DNA of 64,000 bases from an uncultured Candidatus Berkelbacteria bacterium (GCA_903877885.1 CAIRFN010000002.1:1734-65733), one strand, 5' to 3'. Numbered from the stretch's first letter, positions 3,581-43,881 are shown. The notes: generated by a model from the letters alone, not told the origin. Numbers and translations: made by a program.

Positions 3581-3674
3581 TGTCATTCTCGAGTCGGGTA
3601 GTAACCAGACATCGGGAATCTAGAAACAATTAATCTGGATTCCAGATCCCGAAGCCTTCGGGTCTGGAATGACA
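3581..3674 (+). repeat. MITE-like structured intergenic repeat, copy 1
   Basis: TGTCATTCTCGAG...ACATCGGGAATCTAGAA...GGATTCCAGATCC-loop-GGTCTGGAATGACA. The terminal inverted repeat is TGTCATTC/GAATGACA. An internal hairpin TTCCAGATCCCGAAG/CTTCGGGTCTGGAA is present. The element ends 12 nt before the clpP ATG. Confidence 0.85.
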
Positions 3675-3686
3675 GAAGGAAAAACA

Positions 3687-4286
3687 ATGGATAAACAAAT
3701 TCGCAATAATTATCTCGTGCCAATGGTGGTGGAAAAATCCCCATATGGCGAACGAGCTTATGATATTTACTCAAGATTATTAAAAGACCGCATCATTTTT
3801 TTGGGCGGTCCAATTGATGACGAAACAGCCAATATTATTATGGCTCAATTGTTGTTTTTGGATTCTGAAGATCAGAAGAAAGACATCTCTTTGTATATCA
3901 ACTCACCTGGTGGTGTGGTGACGGCTGGTATGGCGATTTACGACACGATGCAATATATTAAATCTGATGTTTCGACTATTTGTATTGGTCAAGCCGCCTC
4001 GGCCGCCGCGGTTTTGCTGGCTGCCGGTGCTAAGGGTAAACGCTTTGCTCTACCAAATTGTCGCGTGATGATTCATCAAGTCATGGGTGGTGCTGAAGGC
4101 CAAGCCACTGATATTGAAATTCAAGCCAAAGAAATTTTGCGGGTCAAAGAATCGTTAAATAAAGTTTTAGCCAGTCACACCGGGCAGGCAATTTCCAAGA
4201 TCGAAAAAGACACTGATCGCGATTATTTTATGTCTGCAGATGAAGCTCTTAAATACGGCATTATTGATAAGGTGATAGAAAAATAA
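3687..4286 (+). CDS. clpP: ATP-dependent Clp protease proteolytic subunit
   Basis: Full ClpP homology ([25 protein letters not shown]). RBS GAAGGA lies 7 nt upstream of ATG 3687. The ATG at 3669 lies inside the repeat and has no RBS. Confidence 0.93.
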
Positions 4287-4331
4287 AATTAAACCAGAAG
4301 GTAACTTCCAGGGTTGTATCGGGAGGGAAAA

Positions 4332-5441
4332 ATGAAAAAAAGAGTTTTGATTGTCTCATTTAAAATTGGGTTAGGTCATTATAAGGCGGCCGAAGCGATT
4401 GAAGAAAAATTGCGCCAAAATCACCCGGAATTGGATATTAAGCATGTCGATATGGTTGACTATATTAGTTTGTTGGGCGGCAGTATTTATCAAAAAGGCT
4501 ATCTGGCAATTACTGACAAGGCGCCGGAACTATGGCGCATGCTTTATCATCAAACGCCAGCTTATTCCGCCAAATTACGTTTGATTTTTGATTTAGCCAA
4601 CACCGCCAAATTTCGCAAATTAATTTTTGCCCATGAACCAGATTTAGTTATTTGTACTCATTTTATTCCCGCCAGTCTCTTGTCACACTGGCGCGAAACC
4701 TTAAATTTAGAAACCAAATTAGCTTTTATTCTGACTGATTTTGAAAGTCATCCGCATTTAATTATTCCTGGACTCGATTTATACTCGGTGGCGGCCGATT
4801 CGGTTAAACATGAATTAGTTAAAAATAAGATTGATTCAAGTAAAATCGCAGTTACTGGTATTCCAGTCAAAGCCAATTTTACTAAAACCTATGAAAAGTC
4901 CAAAATTCGCCAAAAATTGGGTTTAAAAGATAAATTTACTGTTCTTCTGATGAGCGGCGGTTTTGGTGTTGGTGAAATCGAAGATATTTTCTCGCGTCTA
5001 CAAGAATCCACAGATGATTTACAGATTGTGGCTGTGGCTGGTTATAATAAGGAATTGGAAAAAGATTGGCAGAAAGTGGCTAAAAAATCACCAAAAGTTA
5101 ATAAGATTTTTGGTTTTACCGATCAAGTGGCTGAACTAATGGCCTCTGCCGACGTTATTGTCTCTAAAGCCGGTGGTTTGACTGTTTCCGAGTCGCTTTG
5201 TATTGGGACGCCGCTTGTGATTTTTAAGCCGACTCCCGGCCAGGAGGAGGCTAATACTAGATATCTAGTCAGCCGCGCGGCTGCGTATCATGCCGAAACG
5301 GTCAAAGGAATTTTAAATATCATTAATCGAGTTTTTTTGGGTCAAGAAGATATTATGGCAATGAAGAAAAATATTGCTAAAATCGCTAAACCTCATGCGG
5401 CCGAAATCGTGGCTCTAAAAGTGGTTGATTTAATTAAATAA
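4332..5441 (+). CDS. GT28-family glycosyltransferase (MGDG synthase / UgtP-like diacylglycerol glycosyltransferase)
   Basis: N-terminus has the VLIVSFKIGLGHYKAAEAI pattern of MGDG-synthase-like proteins. C-terminal half has a MurG-like G-loop (VSKAGGLTVSE). RBS GGGAGGG. Confidence 0.65.
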   Translation: MKKRVLIVSFKIGLGHYKAAEAIEEKLRQNHPELDIKHVDMVDYISLLGGSIYQKGYLAITDKAPELWRMLYHQTPAYSAKLRLIFDLANTAKFRKLIFAHEPDLVICTHFIPASLLSHWRETLNLETKLAFILTDFESHPHLIIPGLDLYSVAADSVKHELVKNKIDSSKIAVTGIPVKANFTKTYEKSKIRQKLGLKDKFTVLLMSGGFGVGEIEDIFSRLQESTDDLQIVAVAGYNKELEKDWQKVAKKSPKVNKIFGFTDQVAELMASADVIVSKAGGLTVSESLCIGTPLVIFKPTPGQEEANTRYLVSRAAAYHAETVKGILNIINRVFLGQEDIMAMKKNIAKIAKPHAAEIVALKVVDLIK

Positions 5442-5464
5442 TATAATTTTTAAGGACTAAAAAA

Positions 5465-5484
5465 GCGGTTGCTTTCGCAACCGC
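5465..5484. terminator. bidirectional terminator hairpin between convergent genes
   Basis: GCGGTTGCtttcGCAACCGC flanked by an A-run. Confidence 0.6.
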
Positions 5485-5486
5485 AG

Positions 5487-6191
5487 TTAGGTTTTCCGTT
5501 TGGTAATATCGATATTAACGAGATCATGACTAGCCTTGAGAACAAGGTGTATTTCTCGGACCGTTTCGTCGGCCATGAGATAACGAATCGAACCAACCAG
5601 TTGCTCAGCGCGGGTTGGTTGTCGCTTTCGAGCGGTTTTGGGAGCCGCTTTCGGTTTCTCAATTGGTTGTTGAATCACAACAGGAACCTCCTCGGGAATA
5701 GGAATAATCGGCGGTATGGGTAGCGATGTTTTTGGGGTAACTAATCCAGTTTGAGTTAAAACTTTTTGATGTTGTTTTAAAGTTTCTTCACGATTAATTA
5801 TTTGTTCTAATATTTTGAATTTATCAAATGTAATAACTTTTGTTCCAGGCATCTCTTTATATCGCTCGTAGAGATTATTTTTAAAAGCATAAATTTCAAC
5901 TTCTTGATTATTAATGGTAATTGCATCAAGTAGAACGTGCTGATACTCATGGTCACCACTGACAACAATAATCGTATCAACAACTTTATCAGCGGAAATT
6001 CTTTCAATATCTTTGCAAATAGCTGAATCTACATCCGTGTCGTTGGGTAAATTTTTATGCACGGAATAACCTATTGCTTCTAAAGATTGAAGAAATATTT
6101 TTCCATTTTTACCATAAATCGGATATTGATAATAATACCGTGCGTCAATAAGCTCTCGTTTTTGGCTGATAAAATGATATAATTTCTTCAT
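5487..6191 (-). CDS. NYN/LabA-like (PIN-fold) domain protein with Pro-rich linker and C-terminal domain
   Basis: IIVVSGDHEYQHVLLDAI...VEIYAF is the LabA/NYN core. A PIPPIIPIPEE linker follows. An upstream in-frame stop bounds the start. Confidence 0.6.
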   Translation of the reverse strand: MKKLYHFISQKRELIDARYYYQYPIYGKNGKIFLQSLEAIGYSVHKNLPNDTDVDSAICKDIERISADKVVDTIIVVSGDHEYQHVLLDAITINNQEVEIYAFKNNLYERYKEMPGTKVITFDKFKILEQIINREETLKQHQKVLTQTGLVTPKTSLPIPPIIPIPEEVPVVIQQPIEKPKAAPKTARKRQPTRAEQLVGSIRYLMADETVREIHLVLKASHDLVNIDITKRKT

Positions 6192-6418
6192 GTCAAGTAC
6201 AATTTTCTGATGTTCCTGACATTTTTTAGATTAGGTCCATCAATAAAAATTGCTATTTTCTGGCCAGAAATATCCATTGTTGAGTCAATGACATTATCTA
6301 TTCCCATATCATCCCTCTTTCTCTCGATTGTTAAGCTGCGTCCGTTTTTAACGAACTTATTAACTTACCTTAAATTATTGAATTTGTCAAGGTTAAAATC
6401 GATGATTAGTTAAAACTG

Positions 6419-6427
6419 TGCTATAAT
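6419..6427 (+). promoter_or_regulatory. extended -10 promoter (TGcTATAAT) for DUF378 gene
   Basis: TGCTATAAT lies 27 nt upstream of the ATG. RBS GAGGGGAGG. Confidence 0.5.
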
Positions 6428-6454
6428 TTAATAAAGAGAGGGGAGGTGATTTAC

Positions 6455-6655
6455 ATGCAAAAAGGGGCAATTTACATGATCGCAATGACTCTTTTGATCA
6501 TTGGTGGTCTAAACTGGGGTTTAGTTGGCTTTTTTAACTTTGATTTAGTGGCTGCAATCTTTGGTTCTGGCTCAATGCTGACCAAAATTGTTTACGATAT
6601 TGTCGGTATTTGTGCGATTTATGTCGCTATCGCCGCCATGGGTGGCAAAGACTAA
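6455..6655 (+). CDS. DUF378 family small membrane protein
   Basis: LIIGGLNWGLVGFFNFDLVAAIFG is the DUF378 signature. Confidence 0.7.
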   Translation: MQKGAIYMIAMTLLIIGGLNWGLVGFFNFDLVAAIFGSGSMLTKIVYDIVGICAIYVAIAAMGGKD

Positions 6656-6690
6656 AATCAGGTTTTTCTTCAGATCATATCTGGAAAAAC

Positions 6691-6712
6691 GAGGGTTTAG
6701 CCCTCTTTTTCC
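6691..6712 (+). terminator. Rho-independent terminator
   Basis: GAGGGtttaGCCCTC followed by TTTTT. Confidence 0.7.
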
Positions 6713-6745
6713 TTTGAAAAAGATCAGTATTTTTCAAAACAGGTG

Positions 6746-6774
6746 TTGACAAAAAAACAATCATATTATATGAT
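6746..6774 (+). promoter_or_regulatory. 16S rRNA promoter
   Basis: TTGACA, 17-nt spacer, TATGAT, about 360 nt upstream of 16S. Shares the upstream context GGTGTTGACA with the 23S and mraZ promoters. Confidence 0.6.
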
Positions 6775-7134
6775 GTATTTACACCTGGAGGAGAGGAGAA
6801 ATCTTCATCAAGTTTTATTTCTTAAAAAAACAATGATCGATGCTAAATAAAAAAATCTAATTTTTTTAGAGTTTTCTATTTCTCATTGATAACGAACTTT
6901 AACATCGCTCGAATCAGAATCGAGATATTGATTTGAGCACACAAAATATTAATAATACATTCCACCGAATAACATGTATTTAATTCAATACTTTTGTGGT
7001 TGCAAGAACTTCTTTTTAGCATTATTTAGAGGGAAAATAAAAATATGCATTAAGTCCACAATCCACGCGGGTTGTGGCACCAGACTTTTAATCGTCTAGA
7101 AGAACTCAATTTTCTACACGATTAACGGTCTCAA

Positions 7135-8590
<1,456 letters not shown>

Positions 8591-8723
8591 GGGAGTAAAC
8601 ACCTAGGCTAGTTGTTTCAAGCAATTGCATTCAACTAGTTTAAGCGTCGATCTTACCAGACGGCCTGAATCTCAGGTTTGTCTGGCCAAGTCTTGCAACC
8701 ACAAAAGTTTTGAAACTATAAAA

Positions 8724-9262: not shown

Positions 9263-9268
9263 ATGAAG

Positions 9269-10291: not shown

Positions 10292-10528
10292 ATGGGACAT
10301 CATGTTTATTGCATTAACCATTGCATATGCGGGAAAACCAAACATCATATTGGAGCGCGGTTAGAGATAGTACCAACATCTCATAATGATAATGAATCGG
10401 CAGCATCTTATCTTGCCCAAATAGAGGTGCGAACTAATCGTCTACACATTGGCGATTCAATCGAAGTTGGAACACAGATTTTCATTATCGACCAAGCTTT
10501 GTTGGACAAATGGAAATCTACTCCCTGA
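10292..10528 (+). CDS. hypothetical Cys/His-rich small protein
   Basis: 78 aa (MGHHVYCINHCICGKTKHH...). GGAGG lies 8 nt upstream. Followed by a hairpin/T-run. Confidence 0.45.
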   Translation: MGHHVYCINHCICGKTKHHIGARLEIVPTSHNDNESAASYLAQIEVRTNRLHIGDSIEVGTQIFIIDQALLDKWKSTP

Positions 10529-10597
10529 TCCTTGACTGGTTCAGGGTTTTTTGATAATAAAAAACCGCCGGTTTGGCGGTTGATAGAAAATCATCAG

Positions 10598-11056
10598 TTA
10601 TTTTTTGGATTTAAACGGATTCTTATTAAATGGCTTTTCCCAGTCATCTTCTGGTATGACGCTGGCGTGACGGATTTGCTGCGCCATTTTTCGGAATGAT
10701 TTGAGATCGCGAAATTTAAAAACTTTAATCGAATCTTCATCAATATGCCAGGGAAAAATTGGAAATTCTGCGCGTTCACATTCTTGAACAGAAATATTAT
10801 TGCTGTTTACCTCTAAATGGCTAATGAATAATCCGGAACGGAAGCGCCGGCCGTCTACTGGTTCAAGGCTGACGCGACTTTGGTCATTGATGGCGATTTT
10901 ATAAATTCGGTTTTTGAATCTTAAAAACAATTTCAAATGCTTACCTTGATCAACTTTACCTTGATTTCGTAGTCGCTCAATAGCAATTCCAACTAATTCC
11001 TTAATTGCTTCGATCAAGTCAGGATTTACAATTTCAGTGGATTCAATATTCTCCAT
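10598..11056 (-). CDS. hypothetical protein
   Basis: 152 aa ORF convergent with the Cys-rich array. Followed on the minus strand by hairpin AACCGCCGGTTTGGCGGTT. Confidence 0.5.
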   Translation of the reverse strand: MENIESTEIVNPDLIEAIKELVGIAIERLRNQGKVDQGKHLKLFLRFKNRIYKIAINDQSRVSLEPVDGRRFRSGLFISHLEVNSNNISVQECERAEFPIFPWHIDEDSIKVFKFRDLKSFRKMAQQIRHASVIPEDDWEKPFNKNPFKSKK

Positions 11057-11196
11057 CACACTCTCCTTTAAGGTACAGACTGATATATGAATTATACGGG
11101 ATTATCCAGATTAAATCAAGCCTGGTGATGACTCTTGGACTTTGAAAAGTATTTCTAGTATAATCAGGCCAGATTACCAAAGAAGGAGTACCTTAA

Positions 11197-11610
11197 ATGA
11201 AACCAGGGTTTTGCGTTACAGTCGTCTTGGCGTCAATAACCAATATCGTTTGCACCTTAGTTTACTGTTTTGGTCATGGTTCATTACTATGGCTATCCGC
11301 CAGTTTAATGACTGATTTGGTTTTAATTATCGTCGGCACTGCTTGCTTAAAAACCCAAAAAATTATTCGGTATGAATATGTTTTAGATGAAATTGCTAAA
11401 AGAGTTAATGCGAATTGGCCAACCTGTTCGCAAATCAGTCAGACATTAATTAATCATATTACAGAGATTGGTTTGATGGATAATCAGGCTGAAATCGATT
11501 ATGCTTTAGGTCAAATTGTGGCTCAAGCCGAACTTTTAGATCTGATTGGTTATGAGGACCATTCAGCGGAAACCATTGATCATTTTGTAAAAATGGCTCG
11601 TGATTATTAA
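11197..11610 (+). CDS. hypothetical membrane protein
   Basis: 137 aa. N-terminal TM segments. Putative TTGGAC-18-TATAAT promoter upstream. Confidence 0.5.
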   Translation: MKPGFCVTVVLASITNIVCTLVYCFGHGSLLWLSASLMTDLVLIIVGTACLKTQKIIRYEYVLDEIAKRVNANWPTCSQISQTLINHITEIGLMDNQAEIDYALGQIVAQAELLDLIGYEDHSAETIDHFVKMARDY

Positions 11611-21343: not shown

Positions 21344-21445
21344 TGTCATTCTCGAGCCGGTATGAGCTTGTCGAATACCGACATCGGGAATCCAGAATAA
21401 TTTTCCTAGATTCCAGATCCTGTTGCCGACCGGTCTGGAATGACA
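21344..21445 (+). repeat. MITE-like structured intergenic repeat, copy 2
   Basis: TGTCATTCTCGAGCCGG...ACATCGGGAATCCAGAA...GATTCCAGATCC...GGTCTGGAATGACA. Confidence 0.85.
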
Positions 21446-21515: not shown

Positions 21516-22103
21516 ATGAATGATCAAGGCACTAATTATGTGAAGCAACAATTAAATTCTGGCGTCAGCCCTAAAGCGCTCCGTCAAGCGATGGTAAATG
21601 GCGGTTGGAAACCAACTGACGTTGATATTTTAATTAACAATGTTCTCCAAGAAAAAACTCGGAATTTGTCGCCAGCTGTGGCCGCGGATATGGCTCGCGA
21701 TGACGAAATCGCGGCGGCAAGCGCCACAAAACCTGGTTCGAAAGTTGGTTTAATTATTTCGATTATAATTATATTTTTGGTTGTCGTTGGTACGGCTAGC
21801 TATTTCTATTTCAAACCAAATATAAATTGGTCAATTTACATGGGAATTTCCAGTCCAACACCAAGTCCTAGTTCTATTATCAACACTATTCAACCTACTC
21901 TAACCCAAACCGTGACCGATAGTGATAATGACGGTTTGTCGGATACTAATGAATTGATTTGGGGCACGAATCCAAATAATCCAGATACTGATGGTGACGG
22001 CCATCCAGACGGTTCAGAAGTCTGTGCTGGTTATAATCCGCTCGGAGCAGGGAAGTTTACCGCTGCCCAAATGACTTTAACCAAACCTTTGAACTGTCCG
22101 TAG
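21516..22103 (+). CDS. membrane-anchored protein with calcium-binding DxDxDG (thrombospondin type-3-like) repeats
   Basis: TM helix near residue 80. C-terminal DSDNDGLSDTNE / DTDGDGHPDG repeats. Confidence 0.55.
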   Translation: MNDQGTNYVKQQLNSGVSPKALRQAMVNGGWKPTDVDILINNVLQEKTRNLSPAVAADMARDDEIAAASATKPGSKVGLIISIIIIFLVVVGTASYFYFKPNINWSIYMGISSPTPSPSSIINTIQPTLTQTVTDSDNDGLSDTNELIWGTNPNNPDTDGDGHPDGSEVCAGYNPLGAGKFTAAQMTLTKPLNCP

Positions 22104-26835: not shown

Positions 26836-27770
26836 TTTATTAGACCAAAAAAGGAAAGGCTCAAGGATGGGTACTAACCTTAATTTAGAGGGGGTAGACG
26901 ACTAAAATAAAGTAGCAATTTTGCTTGCGATTTTGTTTAGTCCGCTACAAAGGTTACAGCGGACTTTTAAAATTCTAGGTTGTAAGATTCTAAATAAACA
27001 TTTGTTTAGAGAATATAACTTAGAAATTTAACCTTCTAAGATACTTTAACAACTCAAAGATTGATTTCTCTTCTTTTGAAAGTTAGGGAGAGTGGTTAAA
27101 AGATATGTGTCTTTTAGCTTGTCAATCGAGTTATTTTTATTATTTTAGTATCTTGGTTGTTGTCCAACTAAAATAAAATTCGTTAAGAGCATATGGAGGA
27201 TGCCTTGGCATAGAAGACCGATGAAGGACGTAGTAGGCGTGCGATACGCCTCGGGGAGCTGCCAAACAAGCTTTGATCCGAGGATTTCCGAATGGGGAAA
27301 CCCATCTAGCGAAGAGCTAGATATCCAACATCCATCCCTTCAGCACGAATGAGCCCACCTGATCCATTAAATTTATAGGGATCAAGACAATGGGTTTTTA
27401 ATCATTTCGCGCTGGGGGACGGATGTTGGACGGGCACCTGGGGAACTGAAACATCTTAGTACCCAGAGGAAAAGAAAACAATACTCAACTCAATTGAGAG
27501 ATTTAAATCAGCCTTCGGGTTGATTTAAATCTGTGATTCCCTTAGTAGCGGCGAGCGAAACGGGATCAGCCTGGTGATTTCAAGTAAATATTTATTAGCC
27601 AAATGAACCTGGAAAGGGCGACCAAAGAGGGTAATAGTCCCGTAGGCGAAAATTATATTTGAACTGTTATCACTTCTCACTTTCCTTCGGGATTGTGGGA
27701 AAGTACCACTAGACACGTGAAAACTAGTGGGAAGACGGGGGGATCGTCCCCCAAGGCTAAATATCTTCTA

Positions 27771-27818
<48 letters not shown>

Positions 27819-29147
27819 AATTGGGGAGTGAAATAGTACCTGAAACCATATGCTTACAAGAAGTCGGAGCCCGCAAGGGTGACGGCGTGCCTTTTGTAGA
27901 ATGAACCTACGAGTTAGCTGGCAGTGGCTTGGTTAAGTTCCGATAGGGACGGAGCCGTAGCGAAAGCGAGTGTTAATAGCGCGAATTTGTCATTGTCACT
28001 AAACCCGAAACCGGGTGATCTATCCATGAGCAGGTTGAGTCTCTGTGAAAACAGAGAGGAGGACCGAACACTATAGCGTTGCAAAACTATGTGATGACTT
28101 GTGGATAGCGCTAAAATAGCAATCGAACCCGGAAATAGCTGGTTCTCCCCGAAATATATTTAGGTATAGCGGTTTATTACATCTGAAGCGGTAGAGCTCT
28201 GGATGGTCTTGGCGGCGCAAGCCGTCGGACCAATCAAACTCCAAATTCTTCAGGTCAAAGGATAAATCAGTCAGACTGTAGGGGCTAAGCTCTATGGTCG
28301 AGAGGAAAACAGTCCAGACCGCCATCTAAGGTCCCAAAGTGAAACTTAAGTGGAAAAGGATGTGATCATCCTTAGACAACTAGGAGGTTGGCTTAGAAGC
28401 AGCCATCCTTTAAAGAAAGCGTAACAGCTCACTAGTCAAGGATAATTGCGCCGAAAATTTAACGGGGCTCAAAGTTTCCACCGAAGATGCGGATTCAAAA
28501 TTTATTTTGAGTGGTAGGGGAGCGTTCTTATTGGAGTGAAGGTGAACCGTGAGGTTTGCTGGACCGATAAGAAGTGCGAATGTAGGTATGAGTAACGAAT
28601 TAGGCAGGCGAGAAACCTGCCCACCAAATGTCTGAGGTTTCCCCCGCAACGATAATCGACGGGGGGTTAGTCGGGCCTAAGCTTTATGCGATGGACAGCC
28701 GGTTGATATTCCGGCACTGTTATAAGATTATATAGCGATGACGCCGAACGAATGTTTCTGTGAGCGCATGGTTGCGAGCAGAAGTTGAAGTTTGGACAAG
28801 AAAAGTCGCTATCCACTACTTATAGCACCCGTACCGCAAACCGACTCAGGTAGACGGGTGGAGAACACCAAGGTGATCGAGCTAACTTTCCCAAAGGAAC
28901 TCGGCAAAAAAACGGGCGTAACTTAGGGATATGCCCTGCCTACTCGAAAGAGAGGCTGCAACCAACGAATTTCAGGCGACTGTTTACCAAAAACTTAGGT
29001 CTCTGCGAACCCATTTTGGGGATGTATAGGGGCTGATGCCTGCCCAGTGCTAGTAGGTTACGGGGAGAGGTGATTCCGCTAACGCGGATGAGCTTTGAAC
29101 TTAAGCCCTAGTGAACGGCAGCGGTAACTATAACCGTTCTATGGTAG

Positions 29148-29903
<756 letters not shown>

Positions 29904-30398
29904 TGGCATAACGGTCTGAAAACTGTCTCTGGGAAGGGCTCGGTGAAATTACAATGCCGGTAAAGATGCCGGTTACGCGCAGCAAGACGGAAAGACCCCG
30001 TGAAGCTTTACTATAGCTTGATATTGGGTCAAAATTTTAATTGTATAGTGTAGGTGGAAGCCTTCGGGCGACAATGTAACACCACCCTGTTGAAATTTTG
30101 ATTCTAACCCTCGAAAGAAGGGACAGTGTCAGGTGGGTAGTTTAACTGGGGCGGTTGACTCCTAAATTGTAACGGAGTCGTTCAAAGGTTGGCTTGTCCC
30201 GGATGGAAATCGGGATGAAAGTGCAAACGCATAAGCCAGCTTAACTGCAAGGGATACACCCCGCGCAGATGCGAAAGCAGGAGTTAGTGATCCTCTGGCA
30301 CAGTATGATGTGGCCAGAGCTCAACGGATAAAAGCTACTCCGGGGATAACAGGCTGATCGCGCCCAATAGTCCACATAGACGGCGCGGTTTGGCACCT

Positions 30399-31249
30399 TA
30401 ACACATTGGGGTGCTGTGGGAGTAATCCCATACCAAAAAATCGGCTTATAACGGTGAACCCCTATTGTTTGTTCGGGTTTTATTCATTAGAATAGAATAA
30501 AATAAACAAGGGCGATACCGTGGGAAGTCTAACGTCAATTCAGAAAGAAGTTTTGATTGGAAGTTTGTTGGGTGACGGCGCATTGCGCAAGCAAGGCACT
30601 AGAACTAACGCGCTTCTTGAAGTTAATCATTCTTTTCAATATAAAGAATATGTTGATTGGAAATGGCAACATTTCAAGGAGTATATAAAAACTCCACCAA
30701 AGCCTCGACATGGTAATGGCAATCGTATTGCTTATCGCTTTACGACTCAAAGTTTACCGTTTTTTACAGAATATTATGATAAATATTATTCAAATGGTAA
30801 AAAATTTATTGCGCCAGATATTACATTGACCCCTCTGATTTTGTCAGTTTGGTTTATGGATGATGGTTCAAAGAGTCGTAACACTTATTATCTGAATACC
30901 CAACAATTTTCGATCGAAGATCAGAATTGTTTAATGAGTATTCTTGATAGAGACTTGAAAATTAAATCAAGTTTGAACCGCGATAAAATATACTGGAGAA
31001 TTAGAATAAGAACGGAAAGTGCCGACAGATTTAAAAAAATTGTTGCACCTTACCTGTTACCATGTTTCCGTTATAAAATTGACAATGACCCCGTAACGAC
31101 TGATTCGAAAGATGAGATTTAGCTACTTGTAATTTAGCTAGATAACACGCCGCACCCTACATAAAAAAGTAAAGGATATGGCTCACGCCTAAAGTCCAAC
31201 TGTAGGGAAAAGATATAGTCTACGCCATTAGTAATAATGGATAAAAGTA
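30399..31249 (+). mobile_element. group I-like intron 2 in 23S (E. coli position about 2500)
   Basis: About 850-nt insertion between GGCACCT and CGATGTCGG. Carries a LAGLIDADG ORF. Exact boundaries are uncertain by a few nt. Confidence 0.75.
30520..31122 (+). CDS. LAGLIDADG homing endonuclease (two-motif type)
   Basis: GTG start. Motifs LIGSLLGDGAL and WFMDDGS. 200 aa. Located inside intron 2. Confidence 0.85.
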   Translation: MGSLTSIQKEVLIGSLLGDGALRKQGTRTNALLEVNHSFQYKEYVDWKWQHFKEYIKTPPKPRHGNGNRIAYRFTTQSLPFFTEYYDKYYSNGKKFIAPDITLTPLILSVWFMDDGSKSRNTYYLNTQQFSIEDQNCLMSILDRDLKIKSSLNRDKIYWRIRIRTESADRFKKIVAPYLLPCFRYKIDNDPVTTDSKDEI

Positions 31250-31783
31250 CGATGTCGGCTCACCCTATCCTGGGGGTGTAGTAGCTCCCAAGGGTTTGGC
31301 TGTTCGCCAATTAAAAGGGTACGCGAGCTGGGTTCAGAACGTCGTAAGACAGTTCGGTCCTAATCTGCTGTGCGCGTTGAAACTTGAGAGGACTTCGATT
31401 TAGTACGAGAGGACCAATCGGAACGAATCTCTGGTGTACCAGTTGTTCTACCAAGAGCATTGCTGGGTAGCTATATTCGGCCGTGATAACCGCTGAAAGC
31501 ATATAAGCGGGAAGCACACCTCAAGATCAGGTTTCGTTTAGATCCCCAGTAGACCACTGGGTTGATAGGCTCTAGGTGTAAGATGGGTAACCATTTCAGC
31601 CAAGGAGTACTAATTGATCAAGAATTTTATTCAGTTGGGCAACTACCAAGATATCTAAAATAATAATAATTCAATAATTCATAATTCAGAATGAAATAAT
31701 TAATTTTTTTATAAATCTAAATTTTATAATTCTGAATTCTGCATTAAATAATTAGTAATAAATTGTGAATTTTGTCCTGGTGT

Positions 31784-34723: not shown

Positions 34724-34835
34724 TGTCATCCTCGAGCCGGAGGGTACTCCGACCTGCCTGACGGCAGGCAGGCATCAAGGATCCAGATATAAGTCCTGGA
34801 TTCCAGATCCTGCTTTTAGCCGGTCTGGAATGACA
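34724..34835 (+). repeat. MITE-like structured intergenic repeat, copy 3
   Basis: TGTCATCCTCGAGCCGG...(internal palindrome CCTGCCTGACGGCAGGCAGG)...GGATTCCAGATCC...GGTCTGGAATGACA. Ends 18 nt before the yvcK ATG. Confidence 0.85.
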
Positions 34836-34853: not shown

Positions 34854-35801
34854 ATGGGAAAAAGTGTTAAGGATCTCAAAGTCGTCATTATCGGCGGGGG
34901 ATCGGGACTCTCAAATTTACTCAGGGGACTCAAAAAACAAACAGAACATATTACGGCCATCGTGACTATGGCTGATGACGGTGCTTCTTCAGGACGGTTG
35001 CGCGAGGATTTTAATATCTTGCCGCCAGGCGATATCCGAAGTTGTATTTTAGCTTTGTCTGACGAAGAGCAAATGTATCACAAAATTTTTACTTATCGTT
35101 TTCCTCATGGCCGTGGACTTAAAGGTCATAATTTGGGAAATCTTTTGGCAGTGGCCTTAGCTGACATAACTGGTAGTTTTAAAAAAGCGATTCAAGAAAT
35201 GAGCCGGATTTTAAATATCAAAGGCCAGGTTTTACCTTCGACTTACGACGACGTGATTTTGTCAGCCAAATTGGCTAATGGTCGGGTGGTTTGGGGTGAG
35301 TCGAGTATCGCGACCGCGGGTCACAGATCGCCGATTCGTGATATGAAACTTCATCCGGAAAGCGCCAATGCTAATCCCGAGGCAGTCACCGCGATTGAAA
35401 AAGCCGATATTATCATCATCGGTCCGGGCAGTCTTTACACCAGTATTGTGCCAAACTTTTTACTGAAATCGATTACTTGCGCGGTGGCATCCTCACGTGC
35501 TAAAAAGTTTTTTATTTGTAATGTTAGCACCGAACGCGGTGAAACCGAAGATTATTCGGTCGAAGATCATATCAATGCTTTGGTTAAATATTCTGATCCG
35601 CAAATTTTCGATACGATTTTGGTTAATAATAAAATCATATTGAAAAGCGATGGAAAACGCCTTGGCGAAGTTAAAAATATCACTACCGACAAAGCCAAAA
35701 TCGGCCGGTTTGAAGTTGTTTCTGCCGATTTAATCGACCCAAAAAATCCACTTTATCACGACAAAGACAAAGTTTTAAAAGAGATATTGAACAATATTTA
35801 G
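34854..35801 (+). CDS. yvcK: gluconeogenesis factor / UPF0052 (YvcK, CofD-like)
   Basis: VVIIGGGSGLSNLLRGLK...DIIIIGPGSLYTSIVPNFLL. RBS AAGGAG. Confidence 0.9.
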   Translation: MGKSVKDLKVVIIGGGSGLSNLLRGLKKQTEHITAIVTMADDGASSGRLREDFNILPPGDIRSCILALSDEEQMYHKIFTYRFPHGRGLKGHNLGNLLAVALADITGSFKKAIQEMSRILNIKGQVLPSTYDDVILSAKLANGRVVWGESSIATAGHRSPIRDMKLHPESANANPEAVTAIEKADIIIIGPGSLYTSIVPNFLLKSITCAVASSRAKKFFICNVSTERGETEDYSVEDHINALVKYSDPQIFDTILVNNKIILKSDGKRLGEVKNITTDKAKIGRFEVVSADLIDPKNPLYHDKDKVLKEILNNI

Positions 35802-37585: not shown

Positions 37586-37648
37586 TGTCATTGCGAGCGC
37601 GGCAATCCATCATTTTGTCATTGCGAGCGTCGGCGAAGCAATCTATCA
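37586..37648 (+). repeat. tandem pair of TGTCATTGCGAGCG-type short repeats
   Basis: TGTCATTGCGAGCGCGGCAATCCATC and TGTCATTGCGAGCGTCGGCGAAGCAATCTATC. They share the TGTCAT start with the MITE family. Confidence 0.7.
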
Positions 37649-37659
37649 ACAAATTAAAT

Positions 37660-37748
37660 TGTCATCCTGGAGTTGGATGGTAATCCAACATTCAGGATCA
37701 AGAATAAATTGGATTCCAGATCCTGCCGCCGGCCGGTCCGGAATGACA
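37660..37748 (+). repeat. MITE-like structured intergenic repeat, copy 4
   Basis: TGTCATCCTGGAG...ACATTCAGGATCAAGAATAAATTGGATTCCAGATCC...GGTCCGGAATGACA. Ends 17 nt before ATG 37766. Confidence 0.85.
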
Positions 37749-37765: not shown

Positions 37766-38473
37766 ATGTCAGACGAACAATTATCACAAAAAGCCAGTCC
37801 AGAAGAAATGATGAGTGATGAACAACGAGCTGCAGCCGCACAAGAATCGGCTGAATTTGAGTTAACTCCCGAAATCGAAGCTATAGTTATGGATAAAGTT
37901 CAGGATATAAATGCTGACGGAGTTGCCTATTCAGCAGTAACGAGTTTTTTTCGACAATATGGTGATAGAGAAGAATATGGCAATTTTCAAATTATTAAAA
38001 ATATATTATCAGAGGGTCTTCTGGGCTCTAATCTAAAGCATCATTTCAAAAATAATTTTTTGAGACGATGGCAATGGGCGAGGACGGCAAAAAATCGAGA
38101 ACCAGAAAAAAATTTAGTTTGGTTTTCTATAAATGGTAGGATTGGCGATCGGGGTTATGAAAATAAGATTGAAAATGGTGCCAGAATGATGACTCATGGA
38201 GTTGCTATTATTTTTGATACCAGTGAGTTCAAGGAATTGCCTCCAGGCGCACTTAACCAATGGGAGGAGTATACTGATAATCGTCGGAAAATATATGGAA
38301 ATGAGTCGAATATTCGGCCTGAAACAAGAACCTTTTCAGCAGGAAGAGATGAACATACATTATCTGATGTTGAAAACTTTTATAAGCAGCAATCAGATCC
38401 TACGAATCCACATGGTTTTGTCACTCCTTTTAGAGTTAGCCCCGGATTATTTAGTGGACTAGTAATTGGTTGA
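37766..38473 (+). CDS. hypothetical protein, possibly extended through an in-frame TGA to 38689
   Basis: RBS AAGGAG lies 6 nt upstream of ATG 37766. The ORF-track N-terminus (37673) translates the MITE and is rejected. TGA at 38471 is followed in the same frame by 71 sense codons (DIYDSNEQEITKIMVETRRLIKECYYQ...SPE) up to a TGA at 38687. Confidence 0.5.
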   Translation: MSDEQLSQKASPEEMMSDEQRAAAAQESAEFELTPEIEAIVMDKVQDINADGVAYSAVTSFFRQYGDREEYGNFQIIKNILSEGLLGSNLKHHFKNNFLRRWQWARTAKNREPEKNLVWFSINGRIGDRGYENKIENGARMMTHGVAIIFDTSEFKELPPGALNQWEEYTDNRRKIYGNESNIRPETRTFSAGRDEHTLSDVENFYKQQSDPTNPHGFVTPFRVSPGLFSGLVIG

Positions 38474-38664
38474 GATATATATGATTCCAATGAACAAGAA
38501 ATTACTAAAATTATGGTTGAAAACGCGAAGGCTAATCAAAGAATGTTATTACCAGTATACAGAAGTAATGGTAATCTTCTTTGGCCAAAACAAATGACTT
38601 ATAAAGAAGTCAAAGCTTTTGTGGCTGAAAGAGATGCCAAGAAAGCGTGGGAAAATAATGAAGT

Positions 38665-38691
38665 GGATTCCGGATCAAGTCCGGAATGACA
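38665..38691 (+). repeat. truncated MITE-like repeat (3' half only), copy 5
   Basis: GGATTCCGGATCAAGTCCGGAATGACA, located 11 nt upstream of the mutM ATG. Confidence 0.7.
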
Positions 38692-38702
38692 AAAGGAAAA
38701 TT

Positions 38703-39575: not shown

Positions 39576-39609
39576 GCAAAGCTTGTTTTTTTACATTCCA
39601 AAAATAATT

Positions 39610-39662
39610 AGTTAAGGACTGTCCTTAACCTGGTGGTATTAAACCTGGGAGGACAGTCCTTT
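39610..39662 (+). terminator. terminator built from palindromic AAGGACWGTCCTT units
   Basis: TTAAGGACTGTCCTTAA...(24-nt loop)...GGGAGGACAGTCCTTTT. Arms are 12 bp, followed by a T-run. Confidence 0.6.
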
Positions 39663-39675
39663 TGAGCATTTCTCG

Positions 39676-39704
39676 TTGACAATTCTGTAAATAACAGGTA
39701 TAAT
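39676..39704 (+). promoter_or_regulatory. consensus sigma70 promoter
   Basis: TTGACA, 17-nt spacer, TATAAT, followed by a roughly 90-nt 5' UTR to the 39796 gene. Confidence 0.6.
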
Positions 39705-39795
39705 TTTAATGTTCTTTAAAAATCGAAATCATTTCCAAACAAACCTCTAAATCGTCAGAGGAATCTTACAACTACCAAGAAGGGGAGGAAGTCAG

Positions 39796-40275
39796 ATGAT
39801 CGTAACTTGCAGTAGCTGCACTCGTCCGGAAGGTTTTTGTCTGCGTTTTTCGGAAAACGAAAAGCGGTCAGATAACATCGGTTGCCATTTAGGTGTTATT
39901 GCTAGTGATATTGAATTTGCTATTAGCCAAGAAGTTTGCGCCTGGTGTGGCGGTGCTTGTTGTGGCGGTAATATGGTTGAATCGTTGCCTAAAAAATATT
40001 TAGAAAAATATGATTTGCCCAATGAGAAAGATCATTGTCCGGCTTACGACAAAGAAACTGGCTGCGTCTTGCCACGCACTGGTCGGCCAATTGCATGTTT
40101 GATGTTTGAATGTCCATTGCTTGAACAATTGAAAGTTGATATTCAAATGTGGCAATTTTGCAAGCAATTTGGTGTTGATATTACTTCTGTCGATGCCATT
40201 GTTCATTGCAATAAATGTCCGCATTGGAACAGTTGCCAATACACAAATCGTGCATTAATAATTTCCACTCATTAA
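39796..40275 (+). CDS. YkgJ/UPF0153-like CxxCxxCC zinc/iron-chelating domain protein
   Basis: CAWCGGACCGG matches the CxxCGxCC motif. 11 further Cys. RBS GGGGAGGAAG. Confidence 0.5.
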   Translation: MIVTCSSCTRPEGFCLRFSENEKRSDNIGCHLGVIASDIEFAISQEVCAWCGGACCGGNMVESLPKKYLEKYDLPNEKDHCPAYDKETGCVLPRTGRPIACLMFECPLLEQLKVDIQMWQFCKQFGVDITSVDAIVHCNKCPHWNSCQYTNRALIISTH

Positions 40276-40370
40276 TTTGAGCGGTTTTTTTGTTCTTCAG
40301 ATTGACATCAGAGTAAAATAAGATTAGAATGCAAATAGCGATTCAGACCAATTTTGAAAGGATGGGCAAT

Positions 40371-40961
40371 ATGGAACTATCGCTATCGCGAATACAGATA
40401 GCTGTCATCTATGCGGTTAAAGGAACGCCGCCGCCTTCGATTCCCGCTTCGGTGAGAAAAGTGGTAACGATCGAAGTTGATAATTCGCCGGGGTTAACCG
40501 ATGAAGAAATCGCTTTTTTCGAAGATCTGCCGATTAAGGAATGGGAGCGATGGATTGTCAAAGGAGCGACAGTTGGTTTCACTTCAAAAGGTGAAGTTCG
40601 GATTAATTGTGACCGTTTAGGGGTAATTACTATCTGGCTGAAAAATACCAAAAAGATTTATGGTATTAAAGATTATGGCCCAATTCGGGGTAATTATCGC
40701 TTGTGTCACAATTGCGGTAAAATTGCTGGTCAATCAAATACTGGCGCTCATGTTGCCGAAGAAGAATACGATCGCGACAAAGGCACCTCGATTTTACCAT
40801 TTTATTGCGCCAGTTGTCTTTACGAATGGACAATTGAAAAAACCAATGGTCGGCCGCGACCGTTAAAACAAAACGGGCGTAATGGTAATGGCCATGGCCA
40901 AAAACCAAAATGTGTTAAAAATCAACGTATTTTCCCTAATTGGAACCGAGCTACAACTTAA
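40371..40961 (+). CDS. hypothetical protein with CxxC...CxxC zinc-ribbon-like motif
   Basis: CHNCGKI...CASCLYEW. Start is either ATG 40371 or 40359. A terminator follows. Confidence 0.45.
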   Translation: MELSLSRIQIAVIYAVKGTPPPSIPASVRKVVTIEVDNSPGLTDEEIAFFEDLPIKEWERWIVKGATVGFTSKGEVRINCDRLGVITIWLKNTKKIYGIKDYGPIRGNYRLCHNCGKIAGQSNTGAHVAEEEYDRDKGTSILPFYCASCLYEWTIEKTNGRPRPLKQNGRNGNGHGQKPKCVKNQRIFPNWNRATT

Positions 40962-40975
40962 TATCATTCTAACTT

Positions 40976-40998
40976 CCGCGAGTAATCGCGGTTTTTTT
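40976..40998 (+). terminator. Rho-independent terminator
   Basis: CCGCGAgtaaTCGCGG followed by TTTTTTT. Confidence 0.7.
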
Positions 40999-41248
40999 AA
41001 ACTTAAAAATTCTTGCAAAAATATTTTTAGTTTGATATGATAATTTTAATGAGAAACATTCAATTAAATAACTGGTTTAATTTTGCTTATTTTACCACCC
41101 GACCCAAAGCCGGTTAGTTTCTTAAATTAATAAAAAATATTGATATTTAACCGGCTCATGGCCGGCTTTTGTTTTTCTGCGACCCTAGATGTTTCGATAT
41201 CTGGGGCGGCATCTAGAACGAAAGGGGAATAAAACAGTGACGATGAAC

Positions 41249-41440
41249 TTGAGTTTAGAGGAATCAAGAAAGATTATTGGTGACCCGATGGTTAACCAAT
41301 TGGCAACACTGCTTCAATCGGACAACGATCCGATTGTCAAAGCGCGACTAATTCATAACTTGCTTGGCAAGGAAGATACAAAATTCCAACTGGCAGCCAA
41401 TGTTGTGTGGAACCATCTGGTTCAGAGTAGACTGACTTGA
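41249..41440 (+). CDS. hypothetical small protein
   Basis: 64 aa (MNLSLEESRKIIGDPMVNQLATLLQSDNDPIVKARLIHNLLGKEDTKFQLAANVVWNHLVQSRLT). Start is uncertain and the RBS is weak. Confidence 0.3.
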   Translation: MSLEESRKIIGDPMVNQLATLLQSDNDPIVKARLIHNLLGKEDTKFQLAANVVWNHLVQSRLT

Positions 41441-41500
41441 CAACAAAAAATGCCAGCGGTACAATTAAAAAAATGCCTGAAAAGGCACGGGAGGTGTACC

Positions 41501-41854
41501 TTGTCCCAACCTGTCGTTTCTGCTTTAGCATTAACGCCACGCTCAATGGCAGTTGGACTTTATATCAACCATGTGGTTGATCTCGAATCAGAAAATGTTG
41601 TCACGGCCATGGTCGAAATGTTGGAACTTTGTAAAAAATACAAGATTCCGCTTCAAGACATTGAATATGGTTTAAGTCCATATTCGCTGGTGCGTCATCT
41701 GATTGAATGGTGTAACAAGCATCAAGACTATCGCTATTTGGAGATTGCCCAAGAAGTTTCCACCCTTGGCAAAAGCGAGATTACACTCGACATTGTCAAT
41801 ACGATGATCAGCGCAATCACTAGTCTCGAAGTTCAAATTGCCATTTCAACCTAA
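41501..41854 (+). CDS. hypothetical protein
   Basis: TTG start 6 nt after GGGAGG. The ORF-track start 41450 has no RBS. A terminator follows. Confidence 0.4.
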   Translation: MSQPVVSALALTPRSMAVGLYINHVVDLESENVVTAMVEMLELCKKYKIPLQDIEYGLSPYSLVRHLIEWCNKHQDYRYLEIAQEVSTLGKSEITLDIVNTMISAITSLEVQIAIST

Positions 41855-41875
41855 CGATCTGATCAAACTTTCCTC

Positions 41876-41898
41876 GCCCTATTGCGATAGGGCTTTTT
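41876..41898 (+). terminator. Rho-independent terminator
   Basis: GCCCTATTGCGATAGGGC followed by TTTTT. Confidence 0.7.
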
Positions 41899-42078
41899 CT
41901 TTCCTTGCAAATCAAATTATTTTTAATTATAATTAAACTAATGAAAAATATTTCTACTAACTTACTAGCTCTCCTTTTACTCACCACTTGAAAGAGGCGG
42001 CTAGTTTAGATTGGAATAAATATTTTTCTACCCTATACCGCCTCGAGGCGGATTTTTGTTTTTTAAGGAGGGAATTTT

Positions 42079-42219
42079 ATGCCCAAGAAGAAATTGGTTG
42101 TAAAGCCAGAAGTACAGGTTGTGGCAGAATCAACTTCTGCGCCATCGACACCGCCAGCCAAAAAACCGCCAACTCGTCAGGATCTAACCGCTGGCATAAC
42201 ATCTACAATCCCATACTGA
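42079..42219 (+). CDS. candidate small basic protein (46 aa)
   Basis: AAGGAGGG RBS 7 nt upstream of the ATG. Sequence MPKKKLVVKPEVQVVAESTSAPSTPPAKKPPTRQDLTAGITSTIPY. Flanked by terminators CCGCCTCGAGGCGG+T-run (42040) and CCCCGCGCTTTGCGCGGGG+T-run (42243). Confidence 0.4.
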   Translation: MPKKKLVVKPEVQVVAESTSAPSTPPAKKPPTRQDLTAGITSTIPY

Positions 42220-42320
42220 ATCGACTCTCTCATTTCTCAATCTCCCCGCGCTTTGCGCGGGGTTTTCATTTTAATATCAATCGGTTAGAATGAAGATATA
42301 TTAAAAGCAAAAGGAGAAAA

Positions 42321-43085
42321 ATGGACAAATTTGCAGCGATAGTTTTAGCGGCCGGTAAAGGCACGCGGATGAATGAAGGTTTGGCTAGCCCAATTCCAAA
42401 GGTAATGTTTCCTTTAAACGGCGAGCACATTATTGATTGGTCGGTTAAATCAATTAAAGCGGTCGGAATCGACAGAGTGGCTTTGGTGGTTGGTTATAAA
42501 AAAGAATTAGTAATGGAACATTTTGGCGATAAGGTTGAATATGCGGTTCAGGAAGAGCAACTTGGCACTGGTCATGCGGTCGCTCAAGCCAAACTTTTAC
42601 TTGGCAATCAGTCAGAATCGGTTATTGTTTTTTACGGCGATAATCCTTTGTATAAACCAGAAACAATCAAAAAATTAATCAGTATGTATGAAGAAGACCG
42701 TCCAACTGTGGCTATGCTTTCAGTGGTTTTCGCTGACCCCGAATTTTGGGCTTTTGGTCGGATTATTCGCGATGAAAATAACGAAGTCCAAGGCATTGTC
42801 GAACAAAAAGATTGCACTCCAGAACAATTGAAAATTAAAGAATCAAATCCGGGTTTCTATATTTTTGACGCGGCTTGGCTTTGGGCTAATATTGATAAAT
42901 TAGAATCAAATAATGCTCAAAAGGAATATTATTTGACTGATTTAATCAAAATGGCCAAAGAACAAGGCAAACGCATTATGGCTATTCCAGTTTCTGAAGA
43001 AGCTGAAGCTTTGGGTGTAAATAATCCTGATCAGTTAAAACAAGCCGAAGAGGTTTTGAAGTCGCGCGATGCAATACAAAACTAG
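42321..43085 (+). CDS. sugar-1-phosphate nucleotidylyltransferase (GlmU N-terminal-like UDP-GlcNAc pyrophosphorylase domain only)
   Basis: LAAGKGTRM and EQLGTGHAV motifs. 254 aa, with no left-handed beta-helix acetyltransferase domain. Confidence 0.8.
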   Translation: MDKFAAIVLAAGKGTRMNEGLASPIPKVMFPLNGEHIIDWSVKSIKAVGIDRVALVVGYKKELVMEHFGDKVEYAVQEEQLGTGHAVAQAKLLLGNQSESVIVFYGDNPLYKPETIKKLISMYEEDRPTVAMLSVVFADPEFWAFGRIIRDENNEVQGIVEQKDCTPEQLKIKESNPGFYIFDAAWLWANIDKLESNNAQKEYYLTDLIKMAKEQGKRIMAIPVSEEAEALGVNNPDQLKQAEEVLKSRDAIQN

Positions 43086-43788
43086 AGGAATAATTTTAAA
43101 ACGAACAAATTTGGGCGAGGCTGACCGAATTATTACTATTTTTACCGAAAAGTTTGGCAAAATTCGGATTGTCGCTCGCGGGGTTCGAAAAACTTTGTCT
43201 AAAATGGCTGGTCATTTGGAGCCGTTTTGTTTAACAAATTTACAAATCGTTGAAGGCAAAAATTTAGATGTGGTAACCGGCGCTCAAGTTGAAGAATGTT
43301 TCATGGGTATTCGGTCGGATTTAGCTAAAACCCAAAATTGTTTTTATATTGCCGAAATTGTCGATAAAATGACCGAAGACGGCGATATTCATGTGGAAAT
43401 TTTTGAACTTCTGGCCGCAACGTTTTGTCATGCTGACGAATTAATTGCCCCACTTTTGATTTCTTTTTTCGAAATTAATTTTTTGGCTCAAATGGGTTTT
43501 CGGCCAGAGTTACATCAATGTGTCAAATGCCAAAATAAAATCACGGCCGGCGATAATAGTTTTGATTTTACCCGCGGTGGTTTAATTTGTGCTGACTGTG
43601 GTTTGGGTCGAGCGATTTCTGACGAGGCAATTAAAATTATTCGTTTATCACTTGACCATGATTTTAGCAAAATAAAAAGAATAAAAATTAACAAAAAAAT
43701 TGAACAAGAAATCCGCCAACTGACAAATTATTATTTAAAACACATTCATCAAAAAGATTTTAAATCAGAAAAATATTTAACAAAATAA
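43069..43788 (+). CDS. recO: DNA repair protein RecO
   Basis: N-terminal OB-fold signature TRGIILKRTNLGEADRIITIFT...RGVRK. C-terminal Zn site CVKCQN...CADCG. Confidence 0.8.
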   Translation: MQYKTRGIILKRTNLGEADRIITIFTEKFGKIRIVARGVRKTLSKMAGHLEPFCLTNLQIVEGKNLDVVTGAQVEECFMGIRSDLAKTQNCFYIAEIVDKMTEDGDIHVEIFELLAATFCHADELIAPLLISFFEINFLAQMGFRPELHQCVKCQNKITAGDNSFDFTRGGLICADCGLGRAISDEAIKIIRLSLDHDFSKIKRIKINKKIEQEIRQLTNYYLKHIHQKDFKSEKYLTK

Positions 43789-43795
43789 AAATTAA

Positions 43796-43881
43796 TGTCA
43801 TTCTCGAGCCGAGTGGTAACTCGACATCAAGAATCCAGAAAATAGATTCCAGATCCTGAATCCTTCCGGTCTGGAATGACA
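43796..43881 (+). repeat. MITE-like structured intergenic repeat, copy 6
   Basis: TGTCATTCTCGAGCCGAG...ACATCAAGAATCCAGAAAATAGATTCCAGATCC...GGTCTGGAATGACA. Ends 15 nt before the alr ATG. Confidence 0.85.

Follow-up and report, generated by a model that had tools for sequence, protein, structure and literature searches.

In Neisseria, the NTS motif (CGTCATTCCCGCGMAVGCGGGAATCYRG), which encompasses dRS3 and has been generalised as "Ssn-related motifs" (SRM), is the target of SsnA, a 94-aa single-domain GIY-YIG protein that binds the motif as a single-stranded DNA (ssDNA) hairpin and cuts a few nucleotides upstream (Chenal et al. 2025, Nat Commun 16:2388, PMC11893778). SsnA is inactive on double-stranded DNA, on RNA and on the reverse strand, and in N. 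meningitidis cleavage and binding depend most on the three nucleotides that precede the palindrome and on the C that follows it (PMC11893778). Binding and cutting of ssDNA hairpins has been shown for four Ssn homologues; ssn genes are frequently flanked by the motif on both sides, and the authors raised the mobility of such hairpin-ssn-hairpin units as an idea only, proposing for the NTS in Neisseria a role in modulating recombination or DNA uptake via Ssn cleavage (PMC11893778). Both the nuclease family and the motifs it targets are thus recent additions to the literature, dating from 2025. Here we describe a repeat family, present as five full-length copies of 86-112 bp and a single short unit that stands alone, in a 64,000-nt stretch of DNA from an uncultured Candidatus Berkelbacteria bacterium (GCA_903877885.1, CAIRFN010000002.1:1734-65733; hereafter the window, to which all coordinates refer unless another locus is named). 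We think it probable that these copies are a DNA-level palindromic repeat built of NTS/SRM-class hairpin units and tied to an Ssn GIY-YIG nuclease, and not an RNA regulator.

Each full copy consists of two hairpin units in inverted arrangement, with their GTCAT heads pointing outward and a linker of 10-25 nt between them. The 5′ half reads TGTCATTCTCGAG..CATCGGGAATCCAG on the plus strand and the 3′ half TGTCATTCCAGACC..GGATCTGGAATCCAG on the minus strand; since both halves follow the design GTC-[ATYC..stem-loop..GRAT]-C-YAG (the bracketed part being an imperfect palindrome, and the final YAG usual but not constant) on opposite strands, the element is two inverted units of one design. All 11 units of the window (5 left and 6 right) have the GTCAT head, the ATYC..GRAT palindrome and the trailing C, with zero mismatches in the 8-bp arms. 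Alignment and RNAalifold analysis, carried out with the five window copies and then with twelve copies (seven from other contigs), gave two hairpins in both cases: on the left, the 5′ arm CATYCTSGAG pairs with CAUYRRGRAU, on the right ATTCCRGATCC pairs with GGTCYGGAAT, and the whole structure is closed by four outer pairs (UGUC/GACA). A first-pass annotation of the window had proposed a structured family resembling miniature inverted-repeat transposable elements (MITEs), and this is supported, with compensatory changes in both hairpins. In the twelve-copy alignment pair 7:74 is split evenly between UA and CG (6 copies each), pair 116:139 is AU in 6 and GC in 5, and further covarying pairs were found at 10:71, 11:70, 126:132 and 127:131. 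Covariation is equally expected for DNA and RNA hairpins and cannot tell one from the other; counts of non-Watson-Crick pairs, used as a guide to which strand is the functional one, were AC 3 versus GT 2 in the right units and 22 versus 13 in the left units, and stem ends vary.

The 5′ arm covaries with the middle segment and not with the 3′ terminus, so the terminal inverted repeat (TIR) of 8 bp that had been ascribed to every copy is not the main pairing. The ends (TGTCATTC/GAATGACA, with TG..CA termini) do match at 8/8 positions in three copies, whereas two reach only 7/8 (TGTCATCC), and each end of these TIRs is the conserved GTCAT head of one of two independent hairpin units. The same units occur elsewhere alone, in tandem and flanking GIY-YIG nuclease genes. 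At locus L146 (987-1063) a long right unit is followed on the same side by an inverted left-type unit, the units being modular and arranged in tandem as well as in doublets.

The link to the Ssn family comes from genes that stand between window-type units in related low-GC contigs. The minus strand of locus L128 (GC 0.34) carries TGTCATTCCAGACCGGCCGGAGGCAGGATCTGGAATCCAG, a 95-aa GIY-YIG open reading frame (ORF) and CTGGATTCCCGATGTCGGATGCCATCCGACTCGAGAATGACA, which is the order window-type right unit, ssn-like gene, inverted window-type left unit. On alignment, the two flanks of this gene match the two halves of the window element, and the gene lies where the linker stands. The ssn gene P0075 of L158/L160 likewise has window-type right units to either side, with one ahead of it and two inverted ones behind it in L158. 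As the same heads-outward units flank 95-aa Ssn-family genes in these contigs, the doublet looks like an ssn cassette without the gene. The cassettes lie between unrelated genes in different genomes.

P0075 and a second protein, P0001, match Pfam GIY-YIG (3e-15 and 1e-14, respectively). P0075 is 57.8% identical (E 3e-29) to a single matching place in the N. gonorrhoeae chromosome, the ssnA locus, the published criterion for an SsnA homologue in a genome being tblastn E < 1e-10 (PMC11893778). Around that place lie canonical NTS copies as well as inverted, heads-outward NTS doublets. More than 5000 homologues of the nuclease were found, many named from Patescibacteria, and Ssn identity across phyla is 65-76%. 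NCBIfam gave only sub-threshold matches for the nuclease, to GIY-YIG intron endonucleases, and a PDB sequence search with it found no relative.

We also noted several features of the contigs involved. The ssn cassette of L128 is bracketed by a 19-nt inverted repeat (715-750 and 290-335, minus strand; AAATTCGAATTTTGAATTT / AAATTCAAAATTCGAATTT), as if inserted into a pre-existing palindrome. The gonococcal locus (L161; N. gonorrhoeae NZ_CP119142.1, 1881019-1882688) belongs to a 2.17-Mb chromosome that PLSDB lists as a plasmid; its ssnA-like frame holds no ORF of 80 aa or longer, and this strain may have an N-terminal frameshift. On the ssn-cassette contig of L160 there is a ribonucleotide reductase large-subunit gene with a LAGLIDADG_3 intein (1-2440), and the unit at 11205-11240 of L160 falls within the 3′ end of a 310-aa ORF (10323-11255).

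The right-unit pattern was found in at least 118 genomic stretches in one-genome-per-species data, mostly as a 26-nt short form, and the matches listed span Patescibacteria, Proteobacteria, Bacteroidota, Ignavibacteriota, Dehalococcoidia, Nitrospirota and others. Flanks were available for 139 right units among these listed matches, and in 68 of the 139 a GTCAT partner with a perfect stem lies in inverted orientation no more than 150 nt upstream, compared with 9 of 589 control windows; arrangements other than the inverted heads-outward doublet account for 4-7 cases; the inverted doublet is, among the matches listed, the dominant layout across many phyla. The partner units in this set comprise 22 different stem sequences, and 20 of 149 fit the published SRM string HGTCWYN(0-2)YYVSBRHN(0-5)WNVSBRGN(0-2)RNCYNB (a search tool derived from 29 genomes that admits short loops only and gives no functional definition), while 5 are canonical Neisseria NTS. 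A metagenome scan for the long right unit returned 30 stretches, some of them holding full-length relatives of the window element that score 68-99 bits. By comparison, a scan of 2.9 million viral contigs gave only 5 matches, and phages are thus not a major carrier.

All six sites listed in the first-pass annotation were confirmed, as were their plus-strand orientation and their ends 11-70 nt before a start codon. Their number is far above chance: the 3′ block GGTCYGGAATGACA has 6 matches in the window at up to 2 mismatches against 0.24 expected, and the 5′ block TGTCATYCTSGAG is matched exactly at 5 sites. When the five full copies were used to build a covariance model, it recovered only those copies in the window (88-99 bits) together with a weak partial match at 38608-38691; the other 8 kb of the source contig gave no match. 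Doublet 1 (3581-3674, plus strand, 99.3 bits) lies in the tig-clpP spacer, starting 8 nt past the tig stop and ending 12 nt ahead of the clpP ATG (3687); its left unit (3582-3620, GTCAT on the plus strand) is followed by the linker and the right unit (3638-3673, GTCAT on the minus strand). Doublet 2 (21344-21445, plus strand, 90.1 bits; left unit 21345-21392, plus, right unit 21409-21444, minus) begins 1 nt past the stop of a PIG-L family gene and ends 70 nt ahead of the ATG at 21516, where a TSP3-repeat protein is encoded. Doublet 3 (34724-34835, plus strand, 88.6 bits; left unit 34725-34783, plus, right unit 34799-34834, minus) occupies a divergent intergenic region 18 nt ahead of the ATG at 34854 of a CofD/YvcK-like gene, and its left unit has an additional internal hairpin. 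Doublet 4 (37660-37748, plus strand, 98.4 bits; left unit 37661-37699, plus, right unit 37712-37747, minus) ends 17 nt ahead of the ATG at 37766, which opens a gene for an unassigned 235-aa protein. Doublet 5 (43796-43881, plus strand, 95.6 bits; left unit 43797-43835, plus, right unit 43845-43880, minus) lies in the recO-alr spacer, 7 nt past the recO stop and 15 nt ahead of the ATG of alr, which encodes Alr.

The sixth site (38665-38691), which stands 11 nt ahead of the ATG (38703) of mutM (MutM/Fpg), had been taken for a truncated copy. It is instead a complete solo short-form unit (GGATTCCGGATCAAGTCCGGAATGACA, 26 nt), reading TGTCATTCCGGACTTGATCCGGAATCC on the minus strand, and is the same 26-nt hairpin that is known from the many phyla listed above. 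A 58-aa ORF in the public annotation of the contig (38513-38689) ends within this unit, its last codons and stop being repeat-derived. Directly upstream of doublet 4 are two tandem plus-strand units of a third type (GTCATTGCGAGCG..GCAATC), TGTCATTGCGAGCGCGGCAATC (37586-37607, layout GTC-ATTGC..GCAAT-C) and TGTCATTGCGAGCGTCGGCGAAGCAATC (37616-37643), which make the single spacer at 37586-37748 a four-unit mosaic. Third-type units also adjoin right units in L127, L147 and L148.

The position of the copies next to gene starts had been read as a sign of regulation, and this is not supported. The three tandem-gene doublets that fill their spacer adjoin the upstream stop codon (1-8 nt) as closely as the downstream start, and without the element the tig-clpP and recO-alr spacers would measure only about 20 nt, so that the interval from stop codon to ribosome-binding site (RBS) is the sole place that an insertion could occupy.

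The strict orientation bias that had also been claimed stands for full doublets but not for the wider family. All six copies in the window are sense to the downstream gene; however, nearly all window genes lie on the plus strand and GC skew is positive in 16/16 bins, so that "sense to genes" is here confounded with "co-oriented with the G-rich strand". On other contigs, five full-length doublets were sense, one was antisense and one ambiguous (L138, with no downstream gene in the contig), and at L160 GGAATGACA lies on the gene-sense strand in four of five right units, the exception being the 5′ flank of ssn. In contrast, low-GC loci with the short unit gave 21 antisense against 7 sense, with both orientations in one contig, and the element of L153 is antisense. 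GC skew follows gene strand in every locus, and replication- and transcription-linked causes of the bias are therefore not separable. An element on which a strand-specific ssDNA enzyme acts would be expected to show a strand bias, and any cause assigned to the bias here is one that we infer.

Could the copies instead be a cis-acting RNA element of the 5′ untranslated region or operon spacer, whose Y-shaped fold sets mRNA stability, processing or translation or binds an RNA-binding protein? This is the alternative that survives best, and we regard it as unlikely. It would account for the sense orientation of the six window copies, ending 11-18 nt (in one case 70 nt) ahead of an ATG, and of five of the six full-length doublets elsewhere with an assignable downstream gene; the predicted folds are stable (z-scores -2.6 to -5.5), the stems covary, and copies in operon spacers as short as about 20 nt are necessarily co-transcribed. 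DNA hairpins would covary equally, however, and the units are also met beside nuclease genes, singly, in tandem, within ORFs and in antisense orientation. The genes that follow the copies are functionally unrelated, and the element is absent from the orthologous tig-clpP spacer of relatives (see below). It had been suggested that a hairpin could form right at the RBS: the copies do have a stable fold, but the element folds on itself, and the Shine-Dalgarno sequence and AUG are predicted to be unpaired (0.74-0.88) in 5/6 copies. Rfam at gathering thresholds matched no element family in the window and four element-bearing loci, giving only rRNA and tRNA. SsnA, the one protein shown to recognise this class of motif, acts on ssDNA and does not bind RNA (PMC11893778). 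Nor is the further suggestion of a promoter-carrying cassette borne out: three copies were scanned for promoters and terminators, and no signal rose above that of shuffled sequences. Promoter-like sites do not exceed chance, and the terminal ATGACA can mimic a -35 hexamer only weakly. A secondary effect of co-transcribed copies on the mRNA is possible, with no specific effect indicated.

Comparison of orthologous sites revealed that the presence of the element is variable. By its ClpP homologues the organism falls close to Candidatus Berkelbacteria, and the tig-clpP spacer, 114 nt long in the window, measures 50 nt in the closest relative (ClpP 87% identical) and 68 nt in L162 (83%), where no element was found in the spacer; the element is absent at the orthologous tig-clpP site in these relatives. 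Short contigs of the window strain have their start at doublet 5 or slightly ahead of it, roughly 90-200 nt from alr on its upstream side, as expected for a multi-copy repeat.

On the reading that we prefer, an NTS/SRM-class repeat tied to Ssn, the doublet would be a MITE-like non-autonomous derivative of the ssn cassette. During an ssDNA stage (replication, transcription or DNA uptake) each unit would fold into a hairpin, and Ssn would bind the hairpin and nick a few nucleotides 5′ of the GTCAT head; with the heads outward, this would produce two nicks just outside the element, one per strand. The copies may have colonised stop-to-RBS spacers as the only permissive sites of a compact genome, where they would be co-transcribed and self-folding and would leave the RBS free. 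The organism's own Ssn would, by this mechanism, bind and cut the window units and could mobilise them in trans. A broader version, in which ssn cassettes are an unrecognised class of transposable element moving through ssDNA, doublets are gene-less MITEs spread in trans through a genome of the Candidate Phyla Radiation (CPR), and the 10:1 bias is the footprint of insertion or survival on one strand at the replication fork or transcription bubble, is a tentative idea that we hold to be possible though not probable.

Several observations weigh against the Ssn-linked reading. The published SRM string has 0 matches in the window, L128, L158 and L160, against 7 in the control Neisseria locus L161, and we do not claim literal membership under that string for the window units. 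There is no ssn or GIY-YIG gene in the window (searched with regular expressions, with tblastn using an E. coli YhbQ sequence, and with an ad hoc Ssn hidden Markov model) or in the rest of its 72-kb contig. In favour of the reading, the 159-kb contig that encodes P0075 belongs to sample ERZ18624736, in which the window strain is represented by a contig as well, and the tetranucleotide correlation of the P0075 contig with the window is 0.989, compared with 0.981 between the window halves and at most 0.968 for the other CPR loci tested; shared sample and composition, as distinct from binning, suggest that this contig belongs to the genome of the window strain or a close relative. Against it, a strain related to that of the window (ClpP 87% identical) is present in one P0075-holding sample. 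No transposition mechanism is known for Ssn, inspection of the flanks gave no consistent direct repeat as a target-site duplication at the six junctions, and divergence of the sequences around the empty sites prevents placing an insertion point to the base, so that these sites bear on presence and absence only. Finally, full doublets overall are 10:1 sense, a bias that a simple selfish-repeat model does not predict, and the hairpin of the left unit would be exposed, readable by Ssn, on the plus strand, which is the G-rich one.

Even less likely, in our view, than the RNA element is a domesticated chromosomal motif that is not currently mobile and that, for example, marks incoming or replicating ssDNA for Ssn cleavage and so modulates recombination or uptake. 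Such a role has its precedent in Neisseria (PMC11893778) and would fit the genome-specific orientation bias as well as the strong conservation across phyla of both the 26-nt unit and Ssn. The genes adjoining the copies are nevertheless ordinary housekeeping genes without a common theme, presence varies among relatives, and assemblies break at the copies, as for multi-copy selfish repeats; a domesticated motif is also compatible with the Ssn-linked reading and does not exclude it.

It is very unlikely that the element is of the repetitive extragenic palindrome (REP) or REPIN (REP doublet) type and mobilised by a REP-associated tyrosine transposase (RAYT; a Y1 HUH transposase of the IS200/IS605 kind) in place of Ssn. 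An inverted doublet of short hairpins is indeed the form of REPINs and of bacterial interspersed mosaic elements (BIMEs), the copies are intergenic, and the orientation bias resembles that of ssDNA transposition; but the head is GTCAT and not of the GTAG type, the gene between units encodes a GIY-YIG protein and not a Y1 transposase, and no RAYT is found among the Pfam-annotated genes of the contig, the window not having been searched exhaustively for one. A classical MITE, moved by a DDE transposase with the TGTCATTC/GAATGACA ends as its recognition sites, would explain the 8-bp TIR, the uniform size of 86-112 bp and the variable presence at orthologous sites, but it is equally hard to credit, given that no target-site duplication is visible at any copy, that the "TIR" belongs to self-contained units also found alone (38665; L126, L127 and L132), and that no DDE transposase was found bounded by these ends, ssn being the only gene found so bounded.

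The window contains other unusual features apart from the repeat. Its rRNA genes are unlinked (7135-31892), with ORFs between the 16S rRNA gene (7135-8587), tRNA-Ile (17331), tRNA-Ala (18099), the 23S rRNA gene (from 27173) and the 5S rRNA gene (31776). The 23S rRNA gene (27173-31632) spans 4460 nt, compared with a 2925-nt model, and encloses two LAGLIDADG homing-endonuclease ORFs (29296-29727, LAGLIDADG_1, 8.6e-25; 30520-31122, LAGLIDADG_2, 9.4e-42), which points to two intron-like insertions. For the gene at 49610-50119, the contig's public annotation gives a match to Pfam 23S_rRNA_IVP, a family of 23S rRNA intervening-sequence proteins.

What is new at this locus is the combination of long-loop hairpins that fall outside the published string, a fixed two-unit composite and a CPR host. 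If our preferred reading is correct, the window shows gene-less two-hairpin derivatives of the ssn cassette dispersed in the operon spacers of a minimal CPR genome, and the Ssn system extends to Patescibacteria. Patescibacteria are thought to depend on DNA uptake, and an ssDNA-specific nuclease with genomic targets could matter for incoming DNA. Empty orthologous sites combined with a strand bias are the type of evidence that established REPIN/RAYT systems. On the practical side, the published SRM search string misses long-loop variants, and the repeat breaks assemblies and yields false small ORFs as well as false N-terminal extensions (3669 and 37673). For both extensions a spurious in-frame ATG from the end of the element had been held responsible; this is correct at 3669, where the ATG lies inside GAATGACA, but the start at 37673 is a TTG inside the left hairpin.

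Of the described systems, NTS/SRM-SsnA is the closest. The two share the GTCAT head, the ATTCC..GGAAT palindrome, the trailing C-YAG, the oriented hairpin and a mostly intergenic location, and in both the units flank on either side a gene for a single-domain GIY-YIG protein of about 95 aa, here with a homologue 58% identical to the product of the gonococcal locus. They differ in that the window hairpins are 36-59 nt long with long loop inserts, or have a stem one pair shorter, and in that most window units are joined in a fixed composite of two; the host is a Berkelbacteria-like member of the CPR/Patescibacteria, a group absent from the main text of the SsnA study (PMC11893778). The dRS3 repeats and Neisseria intergenic mosaic elements (NIMEs) likewise consist of inverted pairs of ATTCC-type hairpins bounding a short spacer, and several units can be piled up in one spacer, as at 37586-37748 in the window. 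Their consensus, ATTCCC-N8-GGGAAT, differs from the window palindromes, which start with ATTCT, ATCCT or ATTCC and extend over 36-59 nt; the window spacers measure 10-25 nt versus approximately 50-150 nt, and the taxon is another.

With the REP/BIME/REPIN-RAYT systems the window element has in common short hairpin repeats with a conserved 5′ head, the inverted doublet as replicating unit, a cognate single-copy nuclease gene flanked by repeats and an ssDNA-hairpin logic. The enzyme is a HUH Y1 protein there and a GIY-YIG protein here, the head sequence differs, and cleavage of REP by RAYT has been shown, whereas Ssn-mediated mobility is a hypothesis. The Correia elements of Neisseria and Rickettsia palindromic elements are also small, palindromic, MITE-like repeats of compact or host-associated genomes that are co-transcribed with their neighbours. 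In Correia elements the TIRs are 26 bp long, a TA is duplicated, and promoter and RNase III effects are documented, none of which is seen in the window element, and Rickettsia palindromic elements insert in frame into genes, which was likewise not seen. The window elements do have the features by which MITEs are defined: they are short and non-coding, have TIRs that match at 7-8 of 8 bp, are present in five copies, and their ends align to the flanks of ssn with the gene replaced by a 10-25-nt linker.

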